Below, piece after piece: positions 5,733 through 36,666 of a stretch of DNA of 64,000 nucleotides. The stretch lies in the sequence record MH791411.1; one strand, 5' to 3'. The notes beneath the pieces were generated by a model. It was not told where the DNA came from. It saw only the letters and a program-made list of their open reading frames with translations, and ran no database searches. Within the stretch, counting starts at the first letter, position 1; each line of letters starts with the position of its first letter. The stretch is from Escherichia phage Ecwhy_1. Made by a program: the position numbers and the translations under genes.

Positions 5733-6173
5733 TTATTGTAAAACTTTGAGTTTGTAAAGCATTCCTTCACAAAAACTCATAATGTCTTCTAGCGTGTTAG
5801 TACTACCATAGTCTTCAGCCTCTTCTAGCATAGCATGAATGGCTTTACATTGACTAACATATTCTTCAAGAATTGGTACACAATCCTCGATAGGGGTAAA
5901 ACGATAACTGTTACCAGTACCTACCTGCAATGCCCCGCGAGTGTTCATAATACCCTCTACAAATGCATCAACGTACTCAGGTAACTCTTTGTATAGTTCA
6001 TCCAATTGTAGGTGCTTCGTGTAGAAATGGCTCTGTAAATGCCAGTTGTGAGCAGCAGCACTTAAAAATAAACTATTCTCAATAAATGTAAGTAGTACTT
6101 CATCATAAGAACTATCTTCTTCAGTATCTCCGATAAAGTCCATTACATGTCGTAAATCATTAATATTTTCCAT
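5733..6173 (-). CDS. hypothetical acidic protein
   Basis: Track ORF, 146 aa. Confidence 0.5.
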   Translation of the reverse strand: MENINDLRHVMDFIGDTEEDSSYDEVLLTFIENSLFLSAAAHNWHLQSHFYTKHLQLDELYKELPEYVDAFVEGIMNTRGALQVGTGNSYRFTPIEDCVPILEEYVSQCKAIHAMLEEAEDYGSTNTLEDIMSFCEGMLYKLKVLQ

Positions 6174-19339: not shown

Positions 19340-19810
19340 TTAAAAGTCTTTATTTTTATATAAAATTCGTTGGTTATTTGAACCACGAAATGGTAATGTT
19401 AAATTCTTTTCTTCTGAAACAAATTTACCATCAACTAATACATCTAAGTACTGAAGAATGTCTTTAGCATGATTATTCATAATCTCTTCTAAAGTATATC
19501 CACTCCAGCACCAAATAGTTTTATTGGGATAAGTCTCTTTTACAATCTTACATAGTTCTAAAATTGTTTCTATGTTCTTTTTCATTAGAGGATCTCCACC
19601 AAGGAGGGATAATCCACTAACGTAAGGCTTACTGAGTTCAGCTAAAATTATATCAATTGTATCAGTACTGAACTCTTGTCCACTTCTATAATCCCATGCT
19701 TCTTCATTGAAGCATCCGTCACACCCATGACTGCACCCACTAACAAAAAGGGAGCATCTTACTCCCTCCCCATTAATAAGGTCGTCTTTAATTATCGTCT
19801 GGTAATTCAT
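19340..19810 (-). CDS. nrdG: anaerobic ribonucleotide reductase activating protein (radical SAM)
   Basis: Cys cluster SGCSHGCDGCFNEEAW, 156 aa, immediately downstream of nrdD. Confidence 0.85.
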   Translation of the reverse strand: MNYQTIIKDDLINGEGVRCSLFVSGCSHGCDGCFNEEAWDYRSGQEFSTDTIDIILAELSKPYVSGLSLLGGDPLMKKNIETILELCKIVKETYPNKTIWCWSGYTLEEIMNNHAKDILQYLDVLVDGKFVSEEKNLTLPFRGSNNQRILYKNKDF

Positions 19811-20114
19811 CTAATATTGCACTCACTATCTCAACGAGAACATCACCATGACATGATTTCGGTTTACAGAAACAGCCAAGACGTTTCCCTGCTAACTCAA
19901 GTAAATCATCAATCTGAACTTCACCGTTAGAAATACGCTCAATAATGTATTCTCTGAACTTTTCGATTGATTCTTCCCTTGTAGCAACAATGAACTCGGC
20001 TTTGGTCTGTTTATCACTGATATGGGTAAATGGGTTGCCCCATTTAGACCCACGACCGATATACACATCATACGGTTCTTTATATTTGTTAACCACAATT
20101 GGCTTTAAATCCAT
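19788..20114 (-). CDS. conserved phage protein with GNPF motif (DUF4326-like)
   Basis: YIGRGSKWGNPF plus C-terminal GCFCKPKSCHGDVL cysteine/histidine cluster; family assignment from memory of the motif, unverified. Confidence 0.5.
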   Translation of the reverse strand: MDLKPIVVNKYKEPYDVYIGRGSKWGNPFTHISDKQTKAEFIVATREESIEKFREYIIERISNGEVQIDDLLELAGKRLGCFCKPKSCHGDVLVEIVSAILDELPDDN

Positions 20115-20122
20115 AATGTACC

Positions 20123-21955
20123 TTATTTGTGTTGTATACGCTCACAACATTCTTGTTGTTTGCCTTTGTTGAATCCACGAGACGATGGGTTCCCCAAATA
20201 TCCAGAAACACGACGAATCACTGAGATTGTCTTCTCATTGCGATTATCACATACTGGACAATGAAAACCGTGTTTATCTACACTGAACTCACCTTTATAC
20301 CCACACTCGTAACACTGGTCAATTGGCTGGTTGATGCCAAAATATGGAATCTTTGTGTAAGCGTAATTGACTAAAGTCTCAAGTGCTTGAATATTGTTAC
20401 TTAGGTTGGGTGATTCCACATAACTGATGTTTCCTCCATTACTGAGGTAAGCAAAGCCCTCTTCGTAGCTCCACTTATCAAATGCAGAACTTTCTACCCA
20501 TACTGGTTGATGGAAGGAATTTGTGATGTAATCACGTTTTAGTACTGAAGGGTATTTAGATTCGATGCAACGTGCAAATTTGTAGCAAAGTGACTCTGCT
20601 GGGGTTCCATATAGACTAAAAGCTATATTACTCTCTTTTTTGAACTCATCGCATTTTACTTTCATATAATTCAGTACTGACATACAGAACTCCTTACTGA
20701 TAGAACCAGTCAGAATTTCTGAACATTCAACTAAACCAACGTAACCAATACTAATACTAGCATATCCGTTATAAAATAGCTTGTCAATCGTTTCTTCTGC
20801 CCCTAAACGTGAAAGTGCACCTTCCATGAACAAAATCGGATTCTGCTTCGCTTTTGTGCCTTTTAAACGCTCTACGCGGTTCATCTGAGCACGATATGCA
20901 ATATTCATATGCTCGTCTATTTTATCAAAAAACTCTCCATCTGAGGCACTTTCAAGAGCAATTAGAGGTAAATTGATAGAAACCACGCCTAAGTTGAAAC
21001 GACCGTTATATTGCTCATTTCCATTGGAATCTTCCCATTTTCCTAAAAATGAACGACAACCCATAGGAGTTACTGCTGTACTGCTACTTCCTGTAACTTT
21101 GTGATTTAACGGCACAGAAACGAAGTCTGGGTAGATTCTCTTCGATGCACAACGCATTGCCAACTGTTTCATGTCATAGTTGCAATCATCGCTATTCATG
21201 TTGATTCCGTCCTGTAAAAAGAAAATTACTTTAGGAAACACAGGAGTGATCTTATCTTTACCTAAACCATTCTCATGTACTTTTAAGTACTGTTCAGTGA
21301 TTAATTTACCAAATTTTGAAGTATTCAGTCCTAAACTAAGAGAAATGAATGCTGCTTGACCATTTGTACTAATCATTGAATTTGTCTGGTAAAGTAAGGT
21401 TTGACACCCATCATAGACTTCTTTTCGTAATTCTTCCTCAATGTATTCAGTACTGAGATTATATGCCTTTTGCTTCGCTAATAGCTTATCCCACGACTTT
21501 TGGACGTAAGGTTCAAGACCAACGTCGATATGAGCCAACGATTGACCACCGTACTGGGAACTAGCAACAGCTTGTACAATTTGTGTCAGTACTGTACATG
21601 CTACACTAAAACTCTTTGGTTCTTCAATTTTGGCACAACCAATGGTAAATCCATTTTTTAGCATATCTGGGTAGTTAACTAAGCAACAGTTAGTTAATGG
21701 GCTGATATAGTAGTCTAAATCATGAATATGACCATAACCATCATTATGCCACTGCATTAGCTCCTTTGGAATAACATCTTGTGAATAATGCTTAGATAGG
21801 ATACCAGCAAGTAAATCCCTGTGTGTATTGACGCATTTCGCATCTTTGTTTGCATTTTCATTTGTAAGATCAGTATTGCTCTGATTTAGGAAATTTGTTA
21901 CGTCAGTATATAATTTATCTAATTGCATTTTACTTTCCTTGTATTTTGAAATCAT
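20123..21955 (-). CDS. nrdD: anaerobic ribonucleoside-triphosphate reductase
   Basis: 610 aa; C-terminal zinc ribbon CYECG...CPVCDNR followed by glycyl-radical motif RVSGYLG. Confidence 0.9.
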   Translation of the reverse strand: MISKYKESKMQLDKLYTDVTNFLNQSNTDLTNENANKDAKCVNTHRDLLAGILSKHYSQDVIPKELMQWHNDGYGHIHDLDYYISPLTNCCLVNYPDMLKNGFTIGCAKIEEPKSFSVACTVLTQIVQAVASSQYGGQSLAHIDVGLEPYVQKSWDKLLAKQKAYNLSTEYIEEELRKEVYDGCQTLLYQTNSMISTNGQAAFISLSLGLNTSKFGKLITEQYLKVHENGLGKDKITPVFPKVIFFLQDGINMNSDDCNYDMKQLAMRCASKRIYPDFVSVPLNHKVTGSSSTAVTPMGCRSFLGKWEDSNGNEQYNGRFNLGVVSINLPLIALESASDGEFFDKIDEHMNIAYRAQMNRVERLKGTKAKQNPILFMEGALSRLGAEETIDKLFYNGYASISIGYVGLVECSEILTGSISKEFCMSVLNYMKVKCDEFKKESNIAFSLYGTPAESLCYKFARCIESKYPSVLKRDYITNSFHQPVWVESSAFDKWSYEEGFAYLSNGGNISYVESPNLSNNIQALETLVNYAYTKIPYFGINQPIDQCYECGYKGEFSVDKHGFHCPVCDNRNEKTISVIRRVSGYLGNPSSRGFNKGKQQECCERIQHK

Positions 21956-22064: not shown

Positions 22065-22087
22065 AGAAAAAGCACCACTAGGGTGCT
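22065..22087 (-). terminator. putative intrinsic terminator
   Basis: Stem AGCACC/GGTGCT with 5-nt loop and T5 run on minus strand; same AGCACC stem as the terminator at 19312. Confidence 0.45.
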
Positions 22088-22190
22088 TTAAAGTACTGCT
22101 AATATAAAAACTGCCCAAATTAGCAGTACTACATTGGTTGGAGCGGCAAAAAACATATATGCAGCAATTGCACTGCATCCGATTACAAGT

Positions 22191-23006: not shown

Positions 23007-23408
23007 TTATTCTGGATCTTTGTTTTTATCCACTGTATTGTTTTTGTTTAGATCAATACCGAGTGCCACTGCTGCTGCCAGGTTTTCAATACCATCACCA
23101 TTCAAACGAAAACCTTGCTTGAGTAGGTTTTGTGTGTAGTATTTGTTGTAGAAAAATGCCCATACAAACATGGCGATGAAACCTAATGTACCAAAACTAA
23201 TAACGTTCAGGATTACAAAGATGACAAACGCACCGATGAATGTTAGAAAATCAGAACGGAATAGTGCAGGGATTGGACCAAAAAAGAATGTAGTCCATGA
23301 AAAACCATAGAAACCGTCTTTCTTGATTCCAGTACTTTCATTTTTTAAAGAAATAGTTTTAGCCATTGTTGACTCCTTACATGTTATGATTTGGTATACA
23401 GTACACAA
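23007..23408 (-). CDS. membrane protein
   Basis: Two hydrophobic segments (FLTFIGAFVIFVILNVISFGTLGFIAMFVWAFF); true start probably an internal ATG (MAKTISLK). Confidence 0.45.
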   Translation of the reverse strand: MCTVYQIITCKESTMAKTISLKNESTGIKKDGFYGFSWTTFFFGPIPALFRSDFLTFIGAFVIFVILNVISFGTLGFIAMFVWAFFYNKYYTQNLLKQGFRLNGDGIENLAAAVALGIDLNKNNTVDKNKDPE

Positions 23409-23646
23409 ATACTAAATTGGAAAAGTGTTCAGTACTGGAATATTTTGCTAAATCTGTTATATGGAAGTAGACATCTTTGAAATTATCATTCTCAAATGTC
23501 GTTATTTGTAAACAGTGTGTGGGTCTGAAAATATAATAATAAAATATATCATCTTCAGCCACAACTGTATGGTTTTTGTAGCGTTCAATTTTTTTCATGT
23601 GTGAATAATTTCTTTTACCCCATATTCCATAATTGCCAACGTACAA
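23377..23646 (-). CDS. hypothetical protein
   Basis: Track ORF, 89 aa; start uncertain because it overlaps the upstream gene. Confidence 0.4.
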   Translation of the reverse strand: MYVGNYGIWGKRNYSHMKKIERYKNHTVVAEDDIFYYYIFRPTHCLQITTFENDNFKDVYFHITDLAKYSSTEHFSNLVFVYCIPNHNM

Positions 23647-23963
23647 ATCTCACAAGGCTTGGCAGGGACTGGAATACCATCTTTACTTACCCGTGCAATC
23701 AACAAAGTATGAACTTCAGCACGAGAAGCCAGCAAACATGAGATTTCAGCATGAAGAAATTCACCTTGTGGACGACCAGCACGGATTGCAAAACCTTTCT
23801 GTACTGGGTGAGTATGTGTGTAAGAATTAGTACGTGTTGCCAATACACGACCTTTCTTATCAAGTGCACGAGCAATCACACGATAACGTTTGTAGCTCCC
23901 CACTTGCTCGATTGGTGGCATCCGTCGCAATTCTTCAATTAGTTTCTCAAGTTTACGATTCAT
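23595..23963 (-). CDS. cytidine/deoxycytidylate-deaminase-fold zinc deaminase
   Basis: FLHAEISCLL and AKPCEICTLAI match the H-A-E ... P-C-x-x-C zinc signature; only 122 aa, distinct from the dCMP deaminase at 34292. Confidence 0.55.
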   Translation of the reverse strand: MNRKLEKLIEELRRMPPIEQVGSYKRYRVIARALDKKGRVLATRTNSYTHTHPVQKGFAIRAGRPQGEFLHAEISCLLASRAEVHTLLIARVSKDGIPVPAKPCEICTLAIMEYGVKEIIHT

Positions 23964-24586
23964 AAGTCTAAGTCTATACCCTTTTCAAATGATTTCTCTA
24001 GAACCCAAAGTTTACATTCTTCACTCTCCAAATGCATCTTTGCCTCTTTCTGTTGTTCTATTGTACAAGACTTTATAAATTCACGCAAGGCTTCTATTGT
24101 ACTTTTTATATTTTTTATGTCTTCCAGAATTGTTTCTTTGGCTTCAGCATCAATTACAGATGAACTCCACCCGTGACGTTCTTCCCAAATTGTTTTTGTT
24201 GAATTGTAAATTGATGATGTAGAAATGACTGCATGGACCTTATTAAACGTATCGTCTGCTTCTTGTTGGGTGTAATCACCATAAGTGTTTAGCACATTTT
24301 TGTATAGTTCATCAATTGCCTCATCATAAGTATCACCACCGCAATCTAACTCATAATCATGTGCTTGTACCCATTCATCATCTTGCTCAACGTACATAGG
24401 TGAGATGAATTCTACCCAAAATTGTGTCTTTGTATTCAGAGCTTTAAATGATTCAATGCGGTTTGTGATTGGACACACATCATGTGGTTCGATATCAATC
24501 CTTGGGGGAACCATATCTCCGTTGATGAATTTAGGATGGCCCATAATCCACCAGTACTTTTCAGATGTAGTCATTGTAATCTCCAA
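23960..24586 (-). CDS. hypothetical acidic protein
   Basis: Track ORF, 208 aa. Confidence 0.5.
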   Translation of the reverse strand: MEITMTTSEKYWWIMGHPKFINGDMVPPRIDIEPHDVCPITNRIESFKALNTKTQFWVEFISPMYVEQDDEWVQAHDYELDCGGDTYDEAIDELYKNVLNTYGDYTQQEADDTFNKVHAVISTSSIYNSTKTIWEERHGWSSSVIDAEAKETILEDIKNIKSTIEALREFIKSCTIEQQKEAKMHLESEECKLWVLEKSFEKGIDLDL

Positions 24587-24619
24587 ATAAAAAGTACTGC
24601 CACTATAACAGTACTGATA

Positions 24620-24979
24620 TTAAATGTAACGTTTCTTTTTATAATCATACCCTACTTCTTTGTAAAAGTCAAACAAAGAAGCATGGGTAAACGTAGGTAA
24701 CAGATCATATGGGTGCTGATAGTTCGCAATACCAACAACTGCCAGCATTGATTCAGCCGTTCTGGAATTTTCACTATCCCATTCATCTAAACGCCACAGT
24801 GAACAAAGAACTTCACGTTCGTGTTGCTTACCAAGAAAGAATTCAGCTTCACGGTCACGAAATGCACCTACGCTGATAGTACTTTTGTACCAGTCTTTCT
24901 CACCATAAGCTGGCATACGGATAATGTGTTTTTCTTGAGCTTCACCAAAGCGATGAAGAAATGCCACATAATCACTCAT
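24620..24979 (-). CDS. hypothetical protein
   Basis: Track ORF, 119 aa. Confidence 0.5.
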   Translation of the reverse strand: MSDYVAFLHRFGEAQEKHIIRMPAYGEKDWYKSTISVGAFRDREAEFFLGKQHEREVLCSLWRLDEWDSENSRTAESMLAVVGIANYQHPYDLLPTFTHASLFDFYKEVGYDYKKKRYI

Positions 24980-25146
24980 AACTTATAACCCATTACTGGT
25001 TTTGAATAATCAGGTTCATAAAACTTTTCAGTACTGAACCCTCTGAAATTACCACGACCTGGCTTCGGACAAGCCATCCCTTCTACACCGTGCTTACCCT
25101 GAACCTTTCCGCAGTTTTTGCATTTGTATCCAATAACTTCTTTCAT
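24976..25146 (-). CDS. small zinc-ribbon-like protein
   Basis: 56-codon ORF not in track (below length cut-off): MKEVIGYKCKNCGKVQGKHGVEGMACPKPG; stop overlaps next start as ATGA. Confidence 0.35.
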   Translation of the reverse strand: MKEVIGYKCKNCGKVQGKHGVEGMACPKPGRGNFRGFSTEKFYEPDYSKPVMGYKL

Positions 25147-25391
25147 TGTGCATCCTTTGGAATAGTGTTAAGGCGTGTACGGTTTACAATCTTCCTGCAC
25201 ATGAGATTAAGATCTTGCCCATGACGCATCTCATGGCAAGCATACAATGTACCATCATAGTTAAGTTTAGTCAAATTCTGGCGAATGAACTCTGCATCAG
25301 CCTCCTGAACTTTAGGTGCACAGCCACAGAGAGTAATGGACACAAATATTGTTAATGTAATGAATATATTTTTCATGATATTTTTTCTCAT
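25143..25391 (-). CDS. putative lipoprotein
   Basis: Signal peptide ending ITLCGC (lipobox-like), 82 aa. Confidence 0.45.
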   Translation of the reverse strand: MRKNIMKNIFITLTIFVSITLCGCAPKVQEADAEFIRQNLTKLNYDGTLYACHEMRHGQDLNLMCRKIVNRTRLNTIPKDAQ

Positions 25392-26359
25392 TTTGGGCTA
25401 TAACCACTTTTAATTTTAGAAATTACTTTCTTCTCGAAGAACTTACGTGCTTCTTCAATAGTTTTGAATTCTTCACCATCTGTAGTACTGGTTTTACCAA
25501 TAGCACCATACTCAATAATTACTTCACACACTGGAGCATTCAATTCAATATTATAGAATTTGTTCGAAGAACCGTGAACATATTCCAAATGTACATTATC
25601 AGGAATGTTCTGCACATAATCATAGTTCTTGAAGATAATATCAATCATATTTTCTTCACCGCGATCAGGAAATAGTTCAGTATTATTCAGTACTAAACGC
25701 TGTGCAGCACGGAACATATCAAAATATTGTTCACCTTTTTTCAGTTCTTTTGTATCAGAACAGAAATGACCATAGTATTCTACATAATCATTCCAAGGAT
25801 AAATTCCTTCATCAGCAGTTTCAAAAGCGTAAGTTTCATCTTGTGGAACTTTAAAACCACGAGTTTTTGGATGAGAAATTAAGCACAGTGAAATATTATG
25901 ACCGATATCTGAATCATCAGTAATACTACCACCAACCATATGAACAACATTTTTAATACGTTCAAAATCTACATCTTCAATTTCATGATACATTAAATGT
26001 TCTTCAATATTACTTACTAGTAATGAATTACCATTTCCTGCATCGAATTCAAAAATGAAAAGTTCTACACAATCTTCTTCTTTCATTTCAATAGTATCAC
26101 TGAGTTTAATATACTCATTTTTTACTTGTTCAATATTTTCATGAGAACCAAAACTATAACGAGAACTGATATAACTACTACCATCCAACCATCCCATATC
26201 CCAAGGTTCTTCTGACATGTATTCGGTGCTATAGAAATCAGTCAAATCATCTCTCTGAGTACAAACCGTAAGAGAACGAACATTATTAAGACCTTGAACT
26301 TCAAGATTCAGTACTGTAGTGTTGCCGATTTTTTGTTCAGAAATAATTTTAGTTTTCAT
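25388..26359 (-). CDS. WGR-domain protein
   Basis: C-terminal ~60 aa KFYNIELNAPVCEVIIEYGAIGKT...KIKSGY fits the WGR fold pattern (W-G-R replaced by Y-G-A); N-terminal 260 aa unassigned. Confidence 0.45.
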   Translation of the reverse strand: MKTKIISEQKIGNTTVLNLEVQGLNNVRSLTVCTQRDDLTDFYSTEYMSEEPWDMGWLDGSSYISSRYSFGSHENIEQVKNEYIKLSDTIEMKEEDCVELFIFEFDAGNGNSLLVSNIEEHLMYHEIEDVDFERIKNVVHMVGGSITDDSDIGHNISLCLISHPKTRGFKVPQDETYAFETADEGIYPWNDYVEYYGHFCSDTKELKKGEQYFDMFRAAQRLVLNNTELFPDRGEENMIDIIFKNYDYVQNIPDNVHLEYVHGSSNKFYNIELNAPVCEVIIEYGAIGKTSTTDGEEFKTIEEARKFFEKKVISKIKSGYSPK

Positions 26360-28532: not shown

Positions 28533-29972
28533 TTACATATTTTCTTCAGCAAATTCTGCCAGTGGTGAACGAACGACACCTTCTAGTTCGATTACACGAC
28601 AACCGTCCCAGTTCTTGAACTTCTCGGTAACATAAGTTAGACCGCTGTTAACTGGACTAATGAATTTAGAGTCAATCTGGCTCAAGTTGCCCATAATAAC
28701 CACTTTACAGTTCATTCCTGCACGAGTCAGGATTGTTTTAGCCTGAGCAGGAGTAATGTTCTGGAATTCATCCACTACTAGGATAGTGTTTGTGAAAGAA
28801 CGCCCACGAACGAAGTTTAGTGCTTTGAACTGGATAACATTACGTTTCATGATTTCTTCGATACTGCCTTGTGGGTTAGCATCATCTTTGTGTAGGAATT
28901 CCAACGCATCAATGGCAGCTCCACAGAATGGAATCACCTTCTCTGCCTCAGAACCTGGCAAGAAACCAATGTCTTCGAATTGGGAATCTTGTGTTTTGGA
29001 GAAGATGATACGGTCGTATTTTTTCTTCTCTAGTACTAGCTCCAGTGCAGTAGCAATGGTGATCAATGTTTTACCAGTACCTGCGGAACCCAACAGTACT
29101 GTTAGATGAACATCAGGATCTAGGATACTGTTGATTGCTAGTGCTTGTTGAATATTCTTAGCCTTAATATCCCACACTTTAGCACGTAGAGCAACAGATT
29201 GTCCAATATCTTGGAATACAAGAATATCTTCTGGTGTTAAAGTACCATCATCTTCTTCAATTGCAGATTGGCCTTCGTACACAAATAGAACATCAGCATT
29301 ATCATATAGGTAATCACCGATGCAAATATTTTGTGGCATGATATGTTCAATCAAGCTTTTTGGAATGTAGTGATACAAACGGCGACCAACTTGTTCAGAT
29401 TGGATAGACACATCAGTTAGATTGCTATACACATCCCAAAAATCTAGGTCGAGGTGATGTTGACCAATGTGAATCAAATCACTATCACCAATCACGATAT
29501 CATGACGATAATCTTGAACTTCCACCCCGTAGCTTAGAGCCTTGATACGCATATTGATATCACGGGTAACCAGTACTGAATCAGTTGCTAATGCTACTAA
29601 AATGATTTTATCATCTGGTACTGTGCTTTTTAGAAGAGTTTGAACTTTCTCTTCGTTACCAGAAGTACGAATTAGTGCTTCAGCTTCTTCGCTTGTAATA
29701 ACAAACAATTTGCTTTCAGGACTCATATTAGTATGAACATCAGCAATATTAACACCAGTACTACTAATTTCTTCATGTGATGCATCAGAAAGGATAGCTT
29801 CAATGTTACGGATTGCAACACGAGCATCACGGGAAACATCCACATTACGACTTTTGATTGAATCCAATTCTTCAAGTACTGTGAACGGTAGAATGATAGC
29901 TGCTCCATCAAAAGCAATGGTAGCATTTGGATCAGATAGTAGTACGTTTGTGTCAATTGTATATTTTTTCAT
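28533..29972 (-). CDS. phoH: PhoH-like ATPase with N-terminal PIN domain
   Basis: N-terminal PIN-like MKKYTIDTNVLL...EELD; Walker A LLGSAGTGKTLITIA; 479 aa. Confidence 0.85.
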   Translation of the reverse strand: MKKYTIDTNVLLSDPNATIAFDGAAIILPFTVLEELDSIKSRNVDVSRDARVAIRNIEAILSDASHEEISSTGVNIADVHTNMSPESKLFVITSEEAEALIRTSGNEEKVQTLLKSTVPDDKIILVALATDSVLVTRDINMRIKALSYGVEVQDYRHDIVIGDSDLIHIGQHHLDLDFWDVYSNLTDVSIQSEQVGRRLYHYIPKSLIEHIMPQNICIGDYLYDNADVLFVYEGQSAIEEDDGTLTPEDILVFQDIGQSVALRAKVWDIKAKNIQQALAINSILDPDVHLTVLLGSAGTGKTLITIATALELVLEKKKYDRIIFSKTQDSQFEDIGFLPGSEAEKVIPFCGAAIDALEFLHKDDANPQGSIEEIMKRNVIQFKALNFVRGRSFTNTILVVDEFQNITPAQAKTILTRAGMNCKVVIMGNLSQIDSKFISPVNSGLTYVTEKFKNWDGCRVIELEGVVRSPLAEFAEENM

Positions 29973-30662: not shown

Positions 30663-31214
30663 CTATAGATAGCTGATTAGTAAGTTTTCTTTTTGTACAA
30701 GATACTCTAATTCTTGTTTCGCAGTTCCGATGAAGTTCTGTGTCATAAGATTATTATATCCTGCTTCTCGATTTTGTCCCTTCGAATAACGAGAGATGTG
30801 ACATAAATTTACACCAGCCACCTCTGCACTAGCATGTTTGCCATATGCATAATTATCACGAAGTTTTTTAAGTTCAGCATAAGTCATTTCATAACTATAG
30901 CTATGTGAGTGACCCTCTGGAAACAATTCAAGTGATTTTAATGGAGACAGGCGACTTTTGTCAATGATATAGTTCATTTCTTCTTGTACTTCACGTTGTA
31001 ACGCATCTTCTAATGACTTATCAGTACTTTCAACTGTTCCACCACATGCACCCAACAATCCATCCCAACGCACTTGTAGGAGTACTAAGTTAACCACTGG
31101 AATATCATTTAGTTCATAACCAGAGTATGGGGTACATTCTTTTGCATAAAAGAAACAGAATACAAAATTTGCACGTTTCCCCAGTTGTCCCAGTGGTACT
31201 TCAGCTTTACTCAT
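30663..31214 (-). CDS. Nudix hydrolase
   Basis: GGTVESTDKSLEDALQREVQEEMNYI approximates the Nudix box (MutT GGKIEMGETPEQAVVRELQEEVGI) with one inserted residue. Confidence 0.6.
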   Translation of the reverse strand: MSKAEVPLGQLGKRANFVFCFFYAKECTPYSGYELNDIPVVNLVLLQVRWDGLLGACGGTVESTDKSLEDALQREVQEEMNYIIDKSRLSPLKSLELFPEGHSHSYSYEMTYAELKKLRDNYAYGKHASAEVAGVNLCHISRYSKGQNREAGYNNLMTQNFIGTAKQELEYLVQKENLLISYL

Positions 31215-31963
31215 CGCATTCGTTCCTTAATTATAGTTTCAACCTGTGGAATTGCTTTCGTCGCAGGTTTGATGACCTTCTCATTAAAAAGAAAATCATT
31301 ATCATTTTTTCGGATGTTAACATTTACACTATAGCATGGAAGTGCACCAGCTAGTCTGGACCATACCAGTACTGTATCACTACTTCCAATAACTACAACT
31401 GTATCATTTTCTGTGAGACTTTTCAACACTTCATTTCGTTCTTCATAAATGGGGAGACGTACCCCATCAACGTAGCGATGATACTCACCAATCATCACTA
31501 CATTTGGTTTTGCAAAAACATCAGCTTTAGGGATATATGGTTCATAACCACAATTAATGACATTGTAATCATCAGTATTAATAGAAAAGTTCTCAATTAC
31601 TTCACATAAATTGCCGTGTAGTTTGAGTTCGGTTCCACCAATTCTAGTATATAGATCATCCATATTAGAAGTCATGTGTAAAAAACAATCACCATACAAA
31701 TCTTCTAATGATTTAATAAAGTAATGCATTTCATTAGGATGACATTCACCTAATTTTACACGCAATGTATTATAAAATGAATGAACTATATGATACTTAG
31801 AACTAAGTCGTGCAATGTTACAAACATCATTAATTTTGAAATTGTCCCACAACCCATCATCAAAGCGGAATGGTTCCATCCCGCTCTCAACTGAAAGACC
31901 TGCCCCTGAAATTATAAGTAATCTTTTGTTCCCAGCATTTTGTATAAATTTATCTGATATCAC
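31211..31963 (-). CDS. Sir2-family NAD-dependent deacylase / ADP-ribosyltransferase-like protein
   Basis: ISGAGLSVESGMEPFR (GAGIS.ESGIP.FR motif), TSNMDDL, LHGNL catalytic-His motif, PNVVMIGE, VVVIGSSDTV; Zn-binding Cys tetrad degenerate (two Cys only). Confidence 0.65.
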   Translation of the reverse strand: MISDKFIQNAGNKRLLIISGAGLSVESGMEPFRFDDGLWDNFKINDVCNIARLSSKYHIVHSFYNTLRVKLGECHPNEMHYFIKSLEDLYGDCFLHMTSNMDDLYTRIGGTELKLHGNLCEVIENFSINTDDYNVINCGYEPYIPKADVFAKPNVVMIGEYHRYVDGVRLPIYEERNEVLKSLTENDTVVVIGSSDTVLVWSRLAGALPCYSVNVNIRKNDNDFLFNEKVIKPATKAIPQVETIIKERMR

Positions 31964-34030: not shown

Positions 34031-34295
34031 ATTCTACCGTATTAAGTTTCTGACAAATCATGTCAGCTTCAACACGGTCTTTATAATAAATGGTAAAACC
34101 AAATTTACCAGTTACTTTATACTCTTTACAAGTTAAACAATTTACAATGTAGTACTTGTTGTTTTGTGCTGAAAATCGTACTTCATGATTACGCATCACT
34201 GGTGGAGTAGTATTATCATTTAATACCATCATCACTAAAAGTACAAGAATCACAACTGCAAATGGAATACCTAAAATCAAGAAAGTCAAAGTCAC
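34029..34295 (-). CDS. small membrane protein
   Basis: 88 aa; N-terminal TM helix LILGIPFAVVILVLLVMMVL. Confidence 0.45.
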   Translation of the reverse strand: MTLTFLILGIPFAVVILVLLVMMVLNDNTTPPVMRNHEVRFSAQNNKYYIVNCLTCKEYKVTGKFGFTIYYKDRVEADMICQKLNTVE

Positions 34296-34768
34296 AACCC
34301 CTTATCATAAATGCAATTTACAATAATCCCAGCATCTTCCAGTACTTTAATAGCTTCTGGTGGAGTGCGAGGATAACTTTTGTGATAAATCACACGAGCA
34401 ATACCACTTCCCGCGATCAACTTAGAACAAGTATAGCATGGTTGTAGCGTTGTGTAAAGTGTTGCTCCCTGACGTTCAGTAGGTGAACTGTATAACAATG
34501 CATTCATTTCAGCATGGATTTCATGGATATTACTCCATTCATGGTGTTCATGCTTTGCGTCATCGCTAACCCAGTCTTGGAAACGTCCACCATTAACTAA
34601 GTGCTCATTAGCGTCACAGCAGTTAGGTTGTTTAGATGGAGTGCCATTATAACCAGTACTCAATACTCGGTTATTTTTAACAATAACACAACCAACTTTC
34701 TGTGAAATGCATTTACTCTCTTCAGCCACGACTTCGGCTATCTTCAACCACGTCAAGTGTTTCATCAT
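34292..34768 (-). CDS. cd: dCMP deaminase
   Basis: HAEMNALLYS and TLQPCYTCSKLIAGSGI zinc-binding motifs; 158 aa. Confidence 0.8.
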   Translation of the reverse strand: MMKHLTWLKIAEVVAEESKCISQKVGCVIVKNNRVLSTGYNGTPSKQPNCCDANEHLVNGGRFQDWVSDDAKHEHHEWSNIHEIHAEMNALLYSSPTERQGATLYTTLQPCYTCSKLIAGSGIARVIYHKSYPRTPPEAIKVLEDAGIIVNCIYDKGL

Positions 34769-35888: not shown

Positions 35889-36389
35889 TTATTTCTGGAA
35901 TGGAGTGTACTGGTACTGCTCACAATCAGATACAGTTAGTACACCTTCATCATAACCGTACTGGAGAATAAGATCAAATGCTTTATCAACCATAGCTACA
36001 ACGTCTTTGTAACGAACGATGGTATGTGCCTGTTTCTCAACTGCTTTCATAATACCCATCAACATCCAGCGACCTTCATCAGTGTGAAGTTTAGCAAAAC
36101 GAGGACGTTTAGTTGCTGCCATAATGTCAGTCCATTCTGCTTTAAACACTGATGGACGTTTAGGAATATCATACAGAGTTGTTGGGAATGTTACGTTGTT
36201 TTTCTTCATAGCTTCAGCTTGTGCAGCACGATAACCTTGACGGAATAGTGGGTGCTGTGATTTTAGCTGTTCATTGTTAAAAACTACTTTGTTTTTAAAC
36301 GCGGCAGAACCTTCTTTGTATTGTGCATTAGACATATTATTCTTTCCCCTCGTCAGTACTGATGAATTTTTTATCTGAGAATGTGCCAT
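35889..36389 (-). CDS. hypothetical protein
   Basis: Track ORF, 166 aa; start may be internal ATG (MSNAQYKEG) near 36335. Confidence 0.5.
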   Translation of the reverse strand: MAHSQIKNSSVLTRGKNNMSNAQYKEGSAAFKNKVVFNNEQLKSQHPLFRQGYRAAQAEAMKKNNVTFPTTLYDIPKRPSVFKAEWTDIMAATKRPRFAKLHTDEGRWMLMGIMKAVEKQAHTIVRYKDVVAMVDKAFDLILQYGYDEGVLTVSDCEQYQYTPFQK

Positions 36390-36666
36390 GTTCTTGACGC
36401 ATAGCTTCTGCGTGTTGAACTGCGTTAATTGGATTAATGTTCTTTTTAATAAGAACTTCTTGCATTAGTTCGAGAACAATAGAAAAACCATTGAGTACTC
36501 GTTCTGCCTCGTCAACACCTTTCAATTCAATAGCCACTGCACTAATCTGATCTAATGCGGTATTAATAAACTCTGAATCATCTAACACATCATTGACTTC
36601 AGTATTATTACGTACAAGAACTTTCATATAATCTCCAGAAATAAGATGCCCCAAATGAGGCATCAA
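36337..36666 (-). CDS. hypothetical protein
   Basis: Track ORF, 109 aa. Confidence 0.45.
   Translation of the reverse strand: MMPHLGHLISGDYMKVLVRNNTEVNDVLDDSEFINTALDQISAVAIELKGVDEAERVLNGFSIVLELMQEVLIKKNINPINAVQHAEAMRQEHGTFSDKKFISTDEGKE

Follow-up and report, generated by a model that had tools for sequence, protein, structure and literature searches.

A minimal, strongly basic zinc deaminase of Escherichia phage Ecwhy_1 belongs to a large phage family

At 100% identity, the stretch of Escherichia phage Ecwhy_1 DNA analysed here (64,000 nucleotides, hereafter the window) matches the genome of Escherichia phage fEgEco12 (PP777464.1, 374.7 kb), which is a jumbo myovirus of the Rak2/121Q/PBECO4-like kind. 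On its minus strand, an open reading frame at positions 23595..23963 begins with an ATG and encodes 122 amino acids followed by a stop codon. The product is identical to g233 of fEgEco12 (XBS49315.1), which is labelled 'CMP/dCMP-type deaminase domain-containing protein' in GenBank, i.e. a deaminase annotation pre-exists. A motif scan and a family alignment place a zinc ligand (His) and the catalytic Glu at the start of helix 2, in the H71-A72-E73 codons (23745..23753, minus strand), and both cysteine zinc ligands at the start of helix 3, in the P103-C104-E-I-C107 codons (23643..23657, minus strand). Only 15 residues separate the second cysteine, C107, from the C-terminus.

The deaminase gene overlaps its neighbours on both sides. 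Directly upstream, g232 (23960..24586, minus strand) encodes an acidic protein of 208 aa (pI 4.5, net charge -22) of unknown function, which falls in PHROG 16370 and whose stop codon overlaps the deaminase start codon (ATGA). This arrangement is found in every Rak2-like locus examined, with 35-82% identity for g232 versus 57-94% for the deaminase, and g232 is therefore the less conserved of the two; among the loci examined outside Rak2-like phages, g232 was not found beside the deaminase. Downstream, g234 (23377..23598, minus strand) encodes a 73-aa protein of unknown function, with no Pfam or PHROG match; its ATG overlaps the deaminase stop codon (ATGA), and it is kept only in the closest relative examined (121Q-like L005, 79%). 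A pattern scan placed promoter-like sites and a terminator-like hairpin (24615..24593) immediately ahead of g232 (24593..24672, minus strand), and the transcription unit containing the deaminase may possibly start in this region. Past the deaminase and ahead of nrdD, the same kind of pattern matching returned three terminator-like hairpins at 22069..22178. In all Rak2-like phages examined, the deaminase gene lies 1.6 kb upstream of nrdD.

No conserved functional neighbourhood was found outside Rak2-like phages, whether in phiKZ-like SL2, DES1, Carin-5, cyanophage ACG-2014f or metagenomic contigs, where the gene is surrounded by unrelated small early genes. Among the contexts inspected outside Rak2-like phages, we saw no conserved immunity-like partner, uracil-glycosylase inhibitor or delivery domain. 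No thymidylate synthase is annotated within 20 kb of the deaminase gene, and tblastn searches with two ThyX queries returned no enzyme of that type. The phage encodes a thymidine kinase, according to its annotation, and there are no tRNA genes in the 64-kb window.

The gene is identified as a minimal zinc deaminase by its open reading frame, its annotation, its match to PF00383, an AF2 model and family-wide conservation. The PF00383 match of the 122-aa protein is barely above the cut-off (E = 7.7e-6; 26.2 bits for a cut-off of 25), and the same profile is matched by all 111 diverse family members tested (best E = 3e-16). PHROG 174, 'dCMP deaminase', matches at 1e-11. NCBIfam models returned nothing meaningful, with 10.6 bits for NF041025 (anti-phage dCTP deaminase) against a cut-off of 400, and no PADLOC defence model matched. 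The hallmarks of the PF00383 CDA-fold superfamily are all present, namely HxE in helix 2, PCxxC in helix 3 and an alpha/beta deaminase core. The motif does not occur by chance, because Pfam and PHROG both match the protein, 195 phage records hold a homologue, and the motif is invariant in a family of 4289 profile matches.

The 195 phage records were recovered with tblastn. They include Rak2-like phages of Escherichia, Klebsiella, Salmonella, Cronobacter, Erwinia and Yersinia, as well as phiKZ-like Pseudomonas phages (34% identity), Aeromonas phages, T4-like cyanophages, Xanthomonas phage DES1 and Cobetia phage Carin-5. When 1.84 billion cluster representatives were searched with a profile, 4289 matches were obtained at E <= 1e-3, with H-A-E, P-C and C invariant, and 990 clusters (50% identity) at E <= 1e-10. 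The best 150 profile matches are all 96-166 aa long and are thus stand-alone proteins. Every family context that we inspected is phage-like, and a pattern-limited scan of 185,579 prokaryotic genomes for cellular homologues yielded one short MAG contig; the family is thus likely to be phage-restricted. Our literature search found no paper on the family or on the function of phiKZ ORF260, and no biochemical data for any member.

The AF2 model of the 122-aa protein, built on 24 homologues, is confident (mean pLDDT 91.5, pTM 0.83) and shows a four-stranded deaminase core. Its elements are ordered as helix 1, strands 1 and 2, an inserted helix (residues 53-61), helix 2 (HAE), strand 3, helix 3 (PCxxC) and strand 4. 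Strand 4 (residues 118-121) is the end of the chain, so that helix 4 and strand 5 are both lacking. The original prediction of a 122-aa protein with HAE and PCxxC and a very short C-terminus is thus borne out by the open reading frame, the motif scan and the model; likewise, PF00383, the predicted fold and the stand-alone nature of the family agree with its description as a small stand-alone deaminase of the CDA fold, and the structure prediction that it proposed did return a confident deaminase fold.

Conservation across the family is concentrated around the putative active site. In the HAE motif, H is found in 181 and E in 182 of the 182 aligned members, and P103, C104 and C107 are invariant. 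[quoted passage not shown] Conservation of N46, H52, P53, Q55 and A59 reaches at least 90% among 111 diverse members, and the insert probably caps or forms the substrate pocket. The family alignment also singles out R91, at the end of strand 3 (A90-R91 codons, 23688..23693, minus strand), which is specific to the family and nearly invariant (R in 179 of 182 sequences), making it a candidate phosphate contact. Conserved basic positions comprise 24-28, K50 (H in the 122-aa protein), R91 and K102. Other conserved positions are G115, the A-K-P ahead of the first Cys and a Y/H-T at the C-terminus. At position 121, Y occurs in 110, H in 46 and F in 16 of the 182 sequences, and the 122-aa protein ends with H121-T122.

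The tail that follows PCxxC has a bimodal length in the family, with either 15-17 or about 25-29 residues. Among 149 representatives at 50% identity, 63 have the short form, 82 the long form and four an intermediate one. A short C-terminus, which recurs in 63 of these 149 representatives, is therefore no sign of a gene fragment. Short and long forms are intermingled, with a nearest neighbour of matching form for only 85 of the 149 representatives, and strand 5, which forms the beta4-beta5 hairpin, has thus been lost or gained many times. In the model of the long-form relative P0046 (pLDDT 91.7), strand 4 (119-124) is followed by a two-residue turn and strand 5 (127-132), giving an antiparallel beta4-beta5 hairpin without helix 4; strand 5 of long forms frequently carries an acidic residue. 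In the classification of Iyer et al. 2011 (PMC3239186), the 'C-terminal hairpin division' comprises CDA, blasticidin-S deaminase and several toxin deaminases, and the modelled long-form topology falls in this division. Precedents for C-terminal truncation are found only in some toxin clades (BURPS668_1122, YwqJ). We also considered whether strand 5 could be supplied by read-through or frameshifting and rejected it, as the in-frame continuation after the TGA is unlike a long-form tail and the A-run sits past the stop codon.

The same phage encodes a canonical T4-type dCMP deaminase (Cd) of 158 aa (34292..34768, minus strand), 10.3 kb from the small deaminase gene, which provides a convenient comparator. 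Its match to T4 Cd (PDB 1vq2) has E = 1.5e-33, its PF00383 score is 78.5 bits, and it has the GYNGTP, HAEMNA and TLYTT clade motifs as well as the cysteines of the second zinc site. That the small protein could be a fragment or a duplicate of this enzyme is ruled out by the BLASTP comparison of both proteins (E = 13) and by their different motifs, and it is therefore distinct from the dCMP deaminase, as had been proposed. According to Iyer et al. 2011 (PMC3239186, Table 1), the dCMP-deaminase/ComE clade is characterized by a second zinc site carried by a bihelical insert, NxxP following strand 2, HAExNA, TxxxT in strand 3 and a Tyr before helix 4. In the 122-aa protein, the insert (residues 47-70) contains one predicted helix, with no cysteine and no Cys/His zinc motif; NxxP is replaced by N46-S-Y-T (the family Pro is at +7; N-G-T-P in the canonical Cd), HAExNA by HAEISC (HAE-I-[A/S]-A in the family; HAEMNA in the canonical Cd) and TxxxT by T86-L-L-I-A-R (TLYTT in the canonical Cd), and the chain ends with H121-T122 directly past strand 4. 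Lacking helix 4 and the parallel strand 5, the protein lacks the C-terminal part of the usual hexamer and allosteric architecture, and it is about 35-70 residues shorter than clade members (T4 Cd 1vq2; S-TIM5 dCD 4p9c; S. mutans ComEB 2hvv), with a pI of 9.8 versus 6.3-6.7. What it shares with them is the superfamily, the HAE...PCxxC zinc chemistry, a phage-encoded gene tied to nucleotide-metabolism genes and, with T4 Cd, conserved equivalents of the deoxycytidine contacts.

These clade members are also the best profile matches. When the family profile was compared with the PDB, S-TIM5 (3.4e-6), T4 (6.2e-6) and S. mutans (8e-6) dCMP deaminases came first, ahead of TadA-like proteins (E of at least 1e-3) and CDA (0.7). 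Similarly, hhalign gave 96.8% for phage Cd (E = 2.3e-10), 95.0% for TadA and 92.3% for CDA. The profile search against deaminase clades that the original prediction had called for thus ranks dCMP deaminases first. Both the small deaminase and the canonical Cd are kept in roughly 35 related jumbo-phage records, as judged from tblastn identity bands.

A further difference between the two enzymes lies in their charge. The 198 family sequences have a median pI of 9.63 and a net charge of +9, versus 6.31 and -2 for 120 canonical Cd homologues (Mann-Whitney p = 4e-49). With a pI of 9.84, the 122-aa protein is the third most basic of the products of 96 minus-strand open reading frames in the window, whose median is 5.4. 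Mononucleotide enzymes are not usually so positively charged, whereas nucleic-acid binders typically are. The combination of an acidic, translationally coupled g232 with a basic deaminase is suggestive of a possible complex; this hint is given little weight, because most proteins of the phage are acidic.

We conclude that the 122-aa protein is a real zinc deaminase of a large phage family, with a stripped-down fold and a strong positive charge, and that its substrate base is most likely cytosine. The family forms a large, probably phage-restricted clade of minimal zinc deaminases. As for the molecule that carries the base, the reading we tentatively place first, at somewhat below even chances, is that the enzyme acts, without regulation, on free cytosine (deoxy)nucleotides and thereby supplies thymidylate synthesis (dUMP/dTTP) in AT-rich phages.

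As a member of a phage-specific branch of the cytidine/deoxycytidylate deaminase superfamily, the protein would act as a stand-alone, minimal zinc-dependent hydrolytic deaminase. H71, C104 and C107 would bind the zinc that activates a water molecule and E73 would shuttle the proton, converting the cytosine C4-NH2 into C4=O; this chemistry is established for the superfamily, and here the invariant residues and the predicted fold point to it. Judging from context, the substrate would be a free cytosine deoxynucleotide, e.g. dCMP, dCDP/dCTP or a 5-substituted dC nucleotide. The deoxycytidine moiety would be held by N46, V29, A72, E73 and P103, while the insert (Y48, position 50 [K in the family, H here], T51, H52 and Q55), R91 and K102 may close over the sugar and the phosphate. 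T4 dCMP deaminase is allosteric; the small enzyme would be a probably unregulated source of dUMP/dUTP in phages far more AT-rich than their hosts, working beside a T4-type dCMP deaminase in Rak2-like phages and as the only such enzyme in some other phages.

Several observations argue for this free-nucleotide reading. The catalytic and zinc-binding residues are invariant, and both short and long forms give confident models of the deaminase fold. The five residues of T4 Cd that contact the dC moiety (V24, N40, A105, E106 and P131; PMC12697855) have conserved equivalents in the family (V/I/L29, N46, A72, E73 and P103). The nearest sequences of known function are dCMP deaminases, as judged from the PDB profile comparison, hhalign and PHROG 174. 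In the complete genomes of Xanthomonas phage DES1 and Aeromonas phage 4L372XY, both of which encode ThyX and ribonucleotide reductases, the small deaminase is the sole open reading frame with a [HC][AS]E...PCxxC motif. Carin-5 hypermodifies its T by way of 5hmdU and must make dUMP for this purpose; the gene given there as dCMP deaminase by the authors of that study is the small deaminase. Genomic context also speaks for nucleotide metabolism, with nrdD nearby in Rak2-like phages and, in two uncultured viral contigs, a small deaminase that overlaps the canonical dCMP deaminase gene by 32 nt (both enzymes coexist in contigs L013/L014). The examined carriers have AT-rich DNA (31-46% GC; only L020, at 55%, departs from this), and the GC content of their hosts is much higher, about 51% in E. 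coli and up to about 66% in others. Finally, phage PF00383 enzymes have been shown in published work to differ in which phosphorylation level and which 5-substituent they accept. The arguments from AT-richness, from a sole deaminase gene in genomes with ThyX and from Carin-5 are weak, because large lytic phages often encode a thymidylate synthase and are often AT-rich.

Three points stand against a free-nucleotide substrate. First, coexistence with a canonical dCMP deaminase argues for a non-redundant role, simple redundancy being unlikely. Secondly, the dCMP-clade features are lacking, and long forms have the hairpin topology of the other division. Thirdly, the family is strikingly basic, unlike canonical Cd homologues. 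Should the protein nevertheless prove to be a minimal deaminase of dCMP, dCTP or dC, it would illustrate the extent to which the fold can shrink (four strands, no allosteric apparatus and an optional strand 5) and would explain the dUMP supply of AT-rich phages without a canonical Cd, a useful, incremental advance. phiKZ itself encodes a dCTP deaminase of the dUTPase fold.

The main alternative, which we regard as distinctly less probable, is a cytosine deaminase acting on a polynucleotide, i.e. ssDNA, dsDNA or RNA such as tRNA or mRNA. On this reading, the positive surface would grip the backbone while a flipped-out C enters the zinc site, and the enzyme could serve to damage or re-code host nucleic acid early in infection, with g232 as a possible regulator or inhibitor in Rak2-like phages. 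The strongest argument for this idea is the family-wide positive charge, in which these proteins differ from canonical dCMP deaminases and from the other proteins of the phage; it keeps alive the nucleic-acid editor envisaged in the original prediction. Retention alongside a canonical Cd implies a different job, and hairpin-division topology and C-terminal truncation are shared with bacterial nucleic-acid deaminase toxins, with weak fold matches to DddB, DddA and SsdA. Moreover, phage PF00383 enzymes with an ordinary mononucleotide fold have been shown to deaminate ssDNA (bioRxiv 10.1101/2024.12.05.627091), and the phiKZ homologue ORF260 (assigned via a GAP32 note) has its own primary TSS in early infection. 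[quoted passage not shown] The contexts inspected contain none of the conserved partners mentioned above (uracil-glycosylase inhibitor, immunity protein or delivery domain), the neighbours elsewhere being unrelated small early genes, and PADLOC gave no match.

The likeness to toxin deaminases (MafB19, DddA/SCP1.201, DddB, SsdA/DYW-like) bears on the same alternative. It extends to HxE, to hairpin topology, to C-terminal degeneration in some clades and to the small size of the catalytic domains (108 aa for DddB), in addition to the weak fold matches. These toxins are C-terminal modules of large secreted proteins with immunity genes, whereas the family consists of stand-alone phage proteins. The 122-aa protein scores 13.3 bits against MafB19-deam (PF14437), for a Pfam cut-off of 27, and has no delivery domain; it shares N46, HAE and G115 with MafB19-like enzymes, and its K102 is at -2 rather than -3 from C104. 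Although PF14437 touches 74 of 111 family members, such matches do not discriminate, because the canonical Cd of the same phage matches this profile better (1.6e-15).

A stronger version of the polynucleotide reading, and a slightly more doubtful one still, is that the whole family forms a class of its own, hitherto unrecognised, in which minimal stand-alone enzymes (about 100-125 aa, four strands) deaminate cytosine in polynucleotides; large lytic phages would edit or damage host DNA or RNA with them, or their own, and g232 would act as a restraint in Rak2-like phages. Were this true, they would be among the smallest natural nucleic-acid deaminases. More generally, should the charge stem from nucleic-acid binding, the family would offer a great many very compact deaminases, as yet untapped and of use for making base editors smaller and for modification-sensitive sequencing (cf. 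phage mSCD enzymes), and would represent a new phage weapon against, or regulator of, host nucleic acids.

Characterized phage enzymes illustrate how misleading the label of such proteins can be. mSCD-B5 and its relatives, which are 5mC-selective phage PF00383 proteins, are active on 5mC/5hmC nucleotides, dNTPs included, and on ssDNA (bioRxiv 10.1101/2024.12.05.627091), and enzymes of dU-DNA phages annotated as dCMP deaminases are in fact dCTP deaminases (PMC12697855). Like the small deaminase, they are stand-alone phage enzymes that carry a dCMP deaminase label, and their real substrates differ from it; annotation thus does not fix the substrate. They are nevertheless larger (about 150 aa or more) and have the prototypical dCMP-deaminase fold (closest PDB entries 7fh4, 4p9c and 1vq2), with the helix 4 and strand 5 that the 122-aa fold lacks. 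In addition, mSCDs lie within about 3 kb of a dCMP-methylating homologue of thymidylate synthase, with 5m/5hm-dCMP as its predicted product, whereas no thymidylate synthase is annotated within 20 kb of the 122-aa deaminase gene.

A deaminase of nucleosides (cytidine or deoxycytidine), which would form a small homo-oligomer resembling CDA and feed dU to the phage thymidine kinase, is improbable. Its appeal comes from structure: the best Foldseek matches in the PDB are tetrameric cytidine deaminases (M. tuberculosis 4wif, E = 2e-4), whose size is that of the 122-aa protein, and the long-form hairpin aligns with beta4-turn-beta5 of B. subtilis CDA (1jtk), turn glycine included. The thymidine kinase gene of the phage would fit such a pathway. 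The sequence features of CDAs and of blasticidin-S deaminase (BSD; 3oj6) are a different matter. The CDD/CDA clade of Iyer et al. 2011 has PCxxCR, and the 122-aa protein has PCEICT without the Arg (position 108 is Q, S or E in the family); it also lacks strand 5 with its terminal Glu, and it has HAE, an allowed minority form, instead of CAE. The strand 2-helix 2 region is different as well, the family is very basic rather than acidic, and the match to the CDA profile reaches only E = 0.7. Finally, the many conserved basic residues listed above (24-28, position 50, R91 and K102) suggest a phosphorylated ligand.

Even less probable is a counter-defence enzyme that deaminates, and thereby inactivates, a small immune signal or toxic nucleotide, e.g. 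a cyclic pyrimidine or a base-modified nucleotide. The circumstantial case for it is that the family is phage-restricted, small, stand-alone, located among early or accessory genes and kept beside a housekeeping-type Cd; in addition, signalling by base-modified nucleotides has been reported in bacterial immunity. The lack of any PADLOC match and the absence of the family from the anti-defence literature searched argue against it, as does a distribution that goes with large phages encoding a nucleotide metabolism of their own, not with any one defence system.

Least likely of all is the TadA-like tRNA adenosine (A34 to I) deaminase suggested by some automatic annotations: TadA/Tad2 enzymes have EPCxMC, a basic residue after strand 4 and two C-terminal helices with E and F (Iyer et al. 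2011), whereas the 122-aa protein has KPCEIC and no helices bearing the conserved tRNA-contacting Phe, and tRNA genes are absent from the window. Whether the substrate is a free nucleotide or a nucleic acid, roughly a thousand clusters of this family are at present inconsistently labelled dCMP deaminase, cytidine deaminase, TadA or hypothetical protein. In DES1, a tRNA gene does lie near the small deaminase gene; it is Arg(TCT), without A34, and this proximity is a single case.

Strong basicity is a property of the small-deaminase family as a whole: it was found in all 198 family sequences examined, with a median pI of 9.63. In a comparison set of 120 canonical dCMP deaminase homologues, the median is 6.31. 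The two types of deaminase are also found in tandem in two uncultured viral contigs, L013 and L014 (IMG/VR 3300010946_000065 and 3300027923_000487, respectively). The pair lies at 5998..6778 in L013, is arranged likewise in L014, and its genes overlap by 32 nt. The small member is of the long form (117 aa), and the canonical member is a 152-aa protein carrying GYNGTP, HAELNC and TIYTT.

In the phage Ecwhy_1 window, the small-deaminase gene g233 (23595..23963 (-); product basic, net charge +9) belongs to a chain of three genes joined by ATGA stop/start overlaps. The upstream gene, g232 (23960..24586 (-)), encodes an acidic protein (pI 4.5, net charge -22) assigned to PHROG 16370, of unknown function, and the downstream gene, g234 (23377..23598 (-)), encodes 73 aa. 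In Rak2-like phages, the jumbo-phage group of the identical phage fEgEco12, g232 is invariably the immediate upstream neighbour of the small deaminase, with g232 identities of 35-82%. Its product could be a partner or a regulator of the deaminase. Three genes upstream of this unit lies a gene (25388..26359 (-)) whose 323-aa product has a WGR domain at its C-terminus (Pfam E = 1.3e-10); such domains are more familiar from PARP-like and DNA-damage-sensing proteins.

The small deaminase is located about 1.2-1.6 kb upstream of nrdD, a position kept from fEgEco12 to Cronobacter phage GAP32. The nrdD gene forms an anaerobic ribonucleotide reductase pair with nrdG (19340..21955 (-)), and a DUF4326 gene (19788..20114) separates the two. 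Three terminator-like hairpins are clustered within 110 bp (22069..22178 (-)) between the small-deaminase gene run and nrdD; over the whole region, pattern matching yielded 6 terminator-like sites, versus 2.0 +/- 1.6 in shuffled sequences.

Elsewhere in the window, a PRA-PH/MazG-like pyrophosphatase gene (36337..36627 (-)) and the gene for the canonical dCMP deaminase are 1.6 kb apart; in the study of the 5mC-selective phage deaminases (mSCDs; bioRxiv 10.1101/2024.12.05.627091), PRA-PH is among the commonest domains co-localised with phage dCMP deaminases. At 30663..31963 (-) and 28533..29972 (-), according to the GenBank annotation, a NUDIX hydrolase gene adjoins a Sir2-like gene, with a PhoH-like gene nearby. 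The NUDIX and Sir2-like genes form an NAD/ADP-ribose-related pair, which might bear on NAD-depleting host defences.

Two other carrier phages encode tRNAs. The sole tRNA gene of Xanthomonas phage DES1 (64.7 kb), a tRNA-Arg(TCT) at 23734..23809 (-), is located about 400 bp upstream of the small-deaminase gene (23050..23352 (-)), on the same strand. In Aeromonas phage 4L372XY, whose annotation includes a C5-cytosine DNA methyltransferase (24421..25293), ARAGORN predicted an unusually long (90 nt) tRNA-Ile with a TAT anticodon at 20243..20332 (-).
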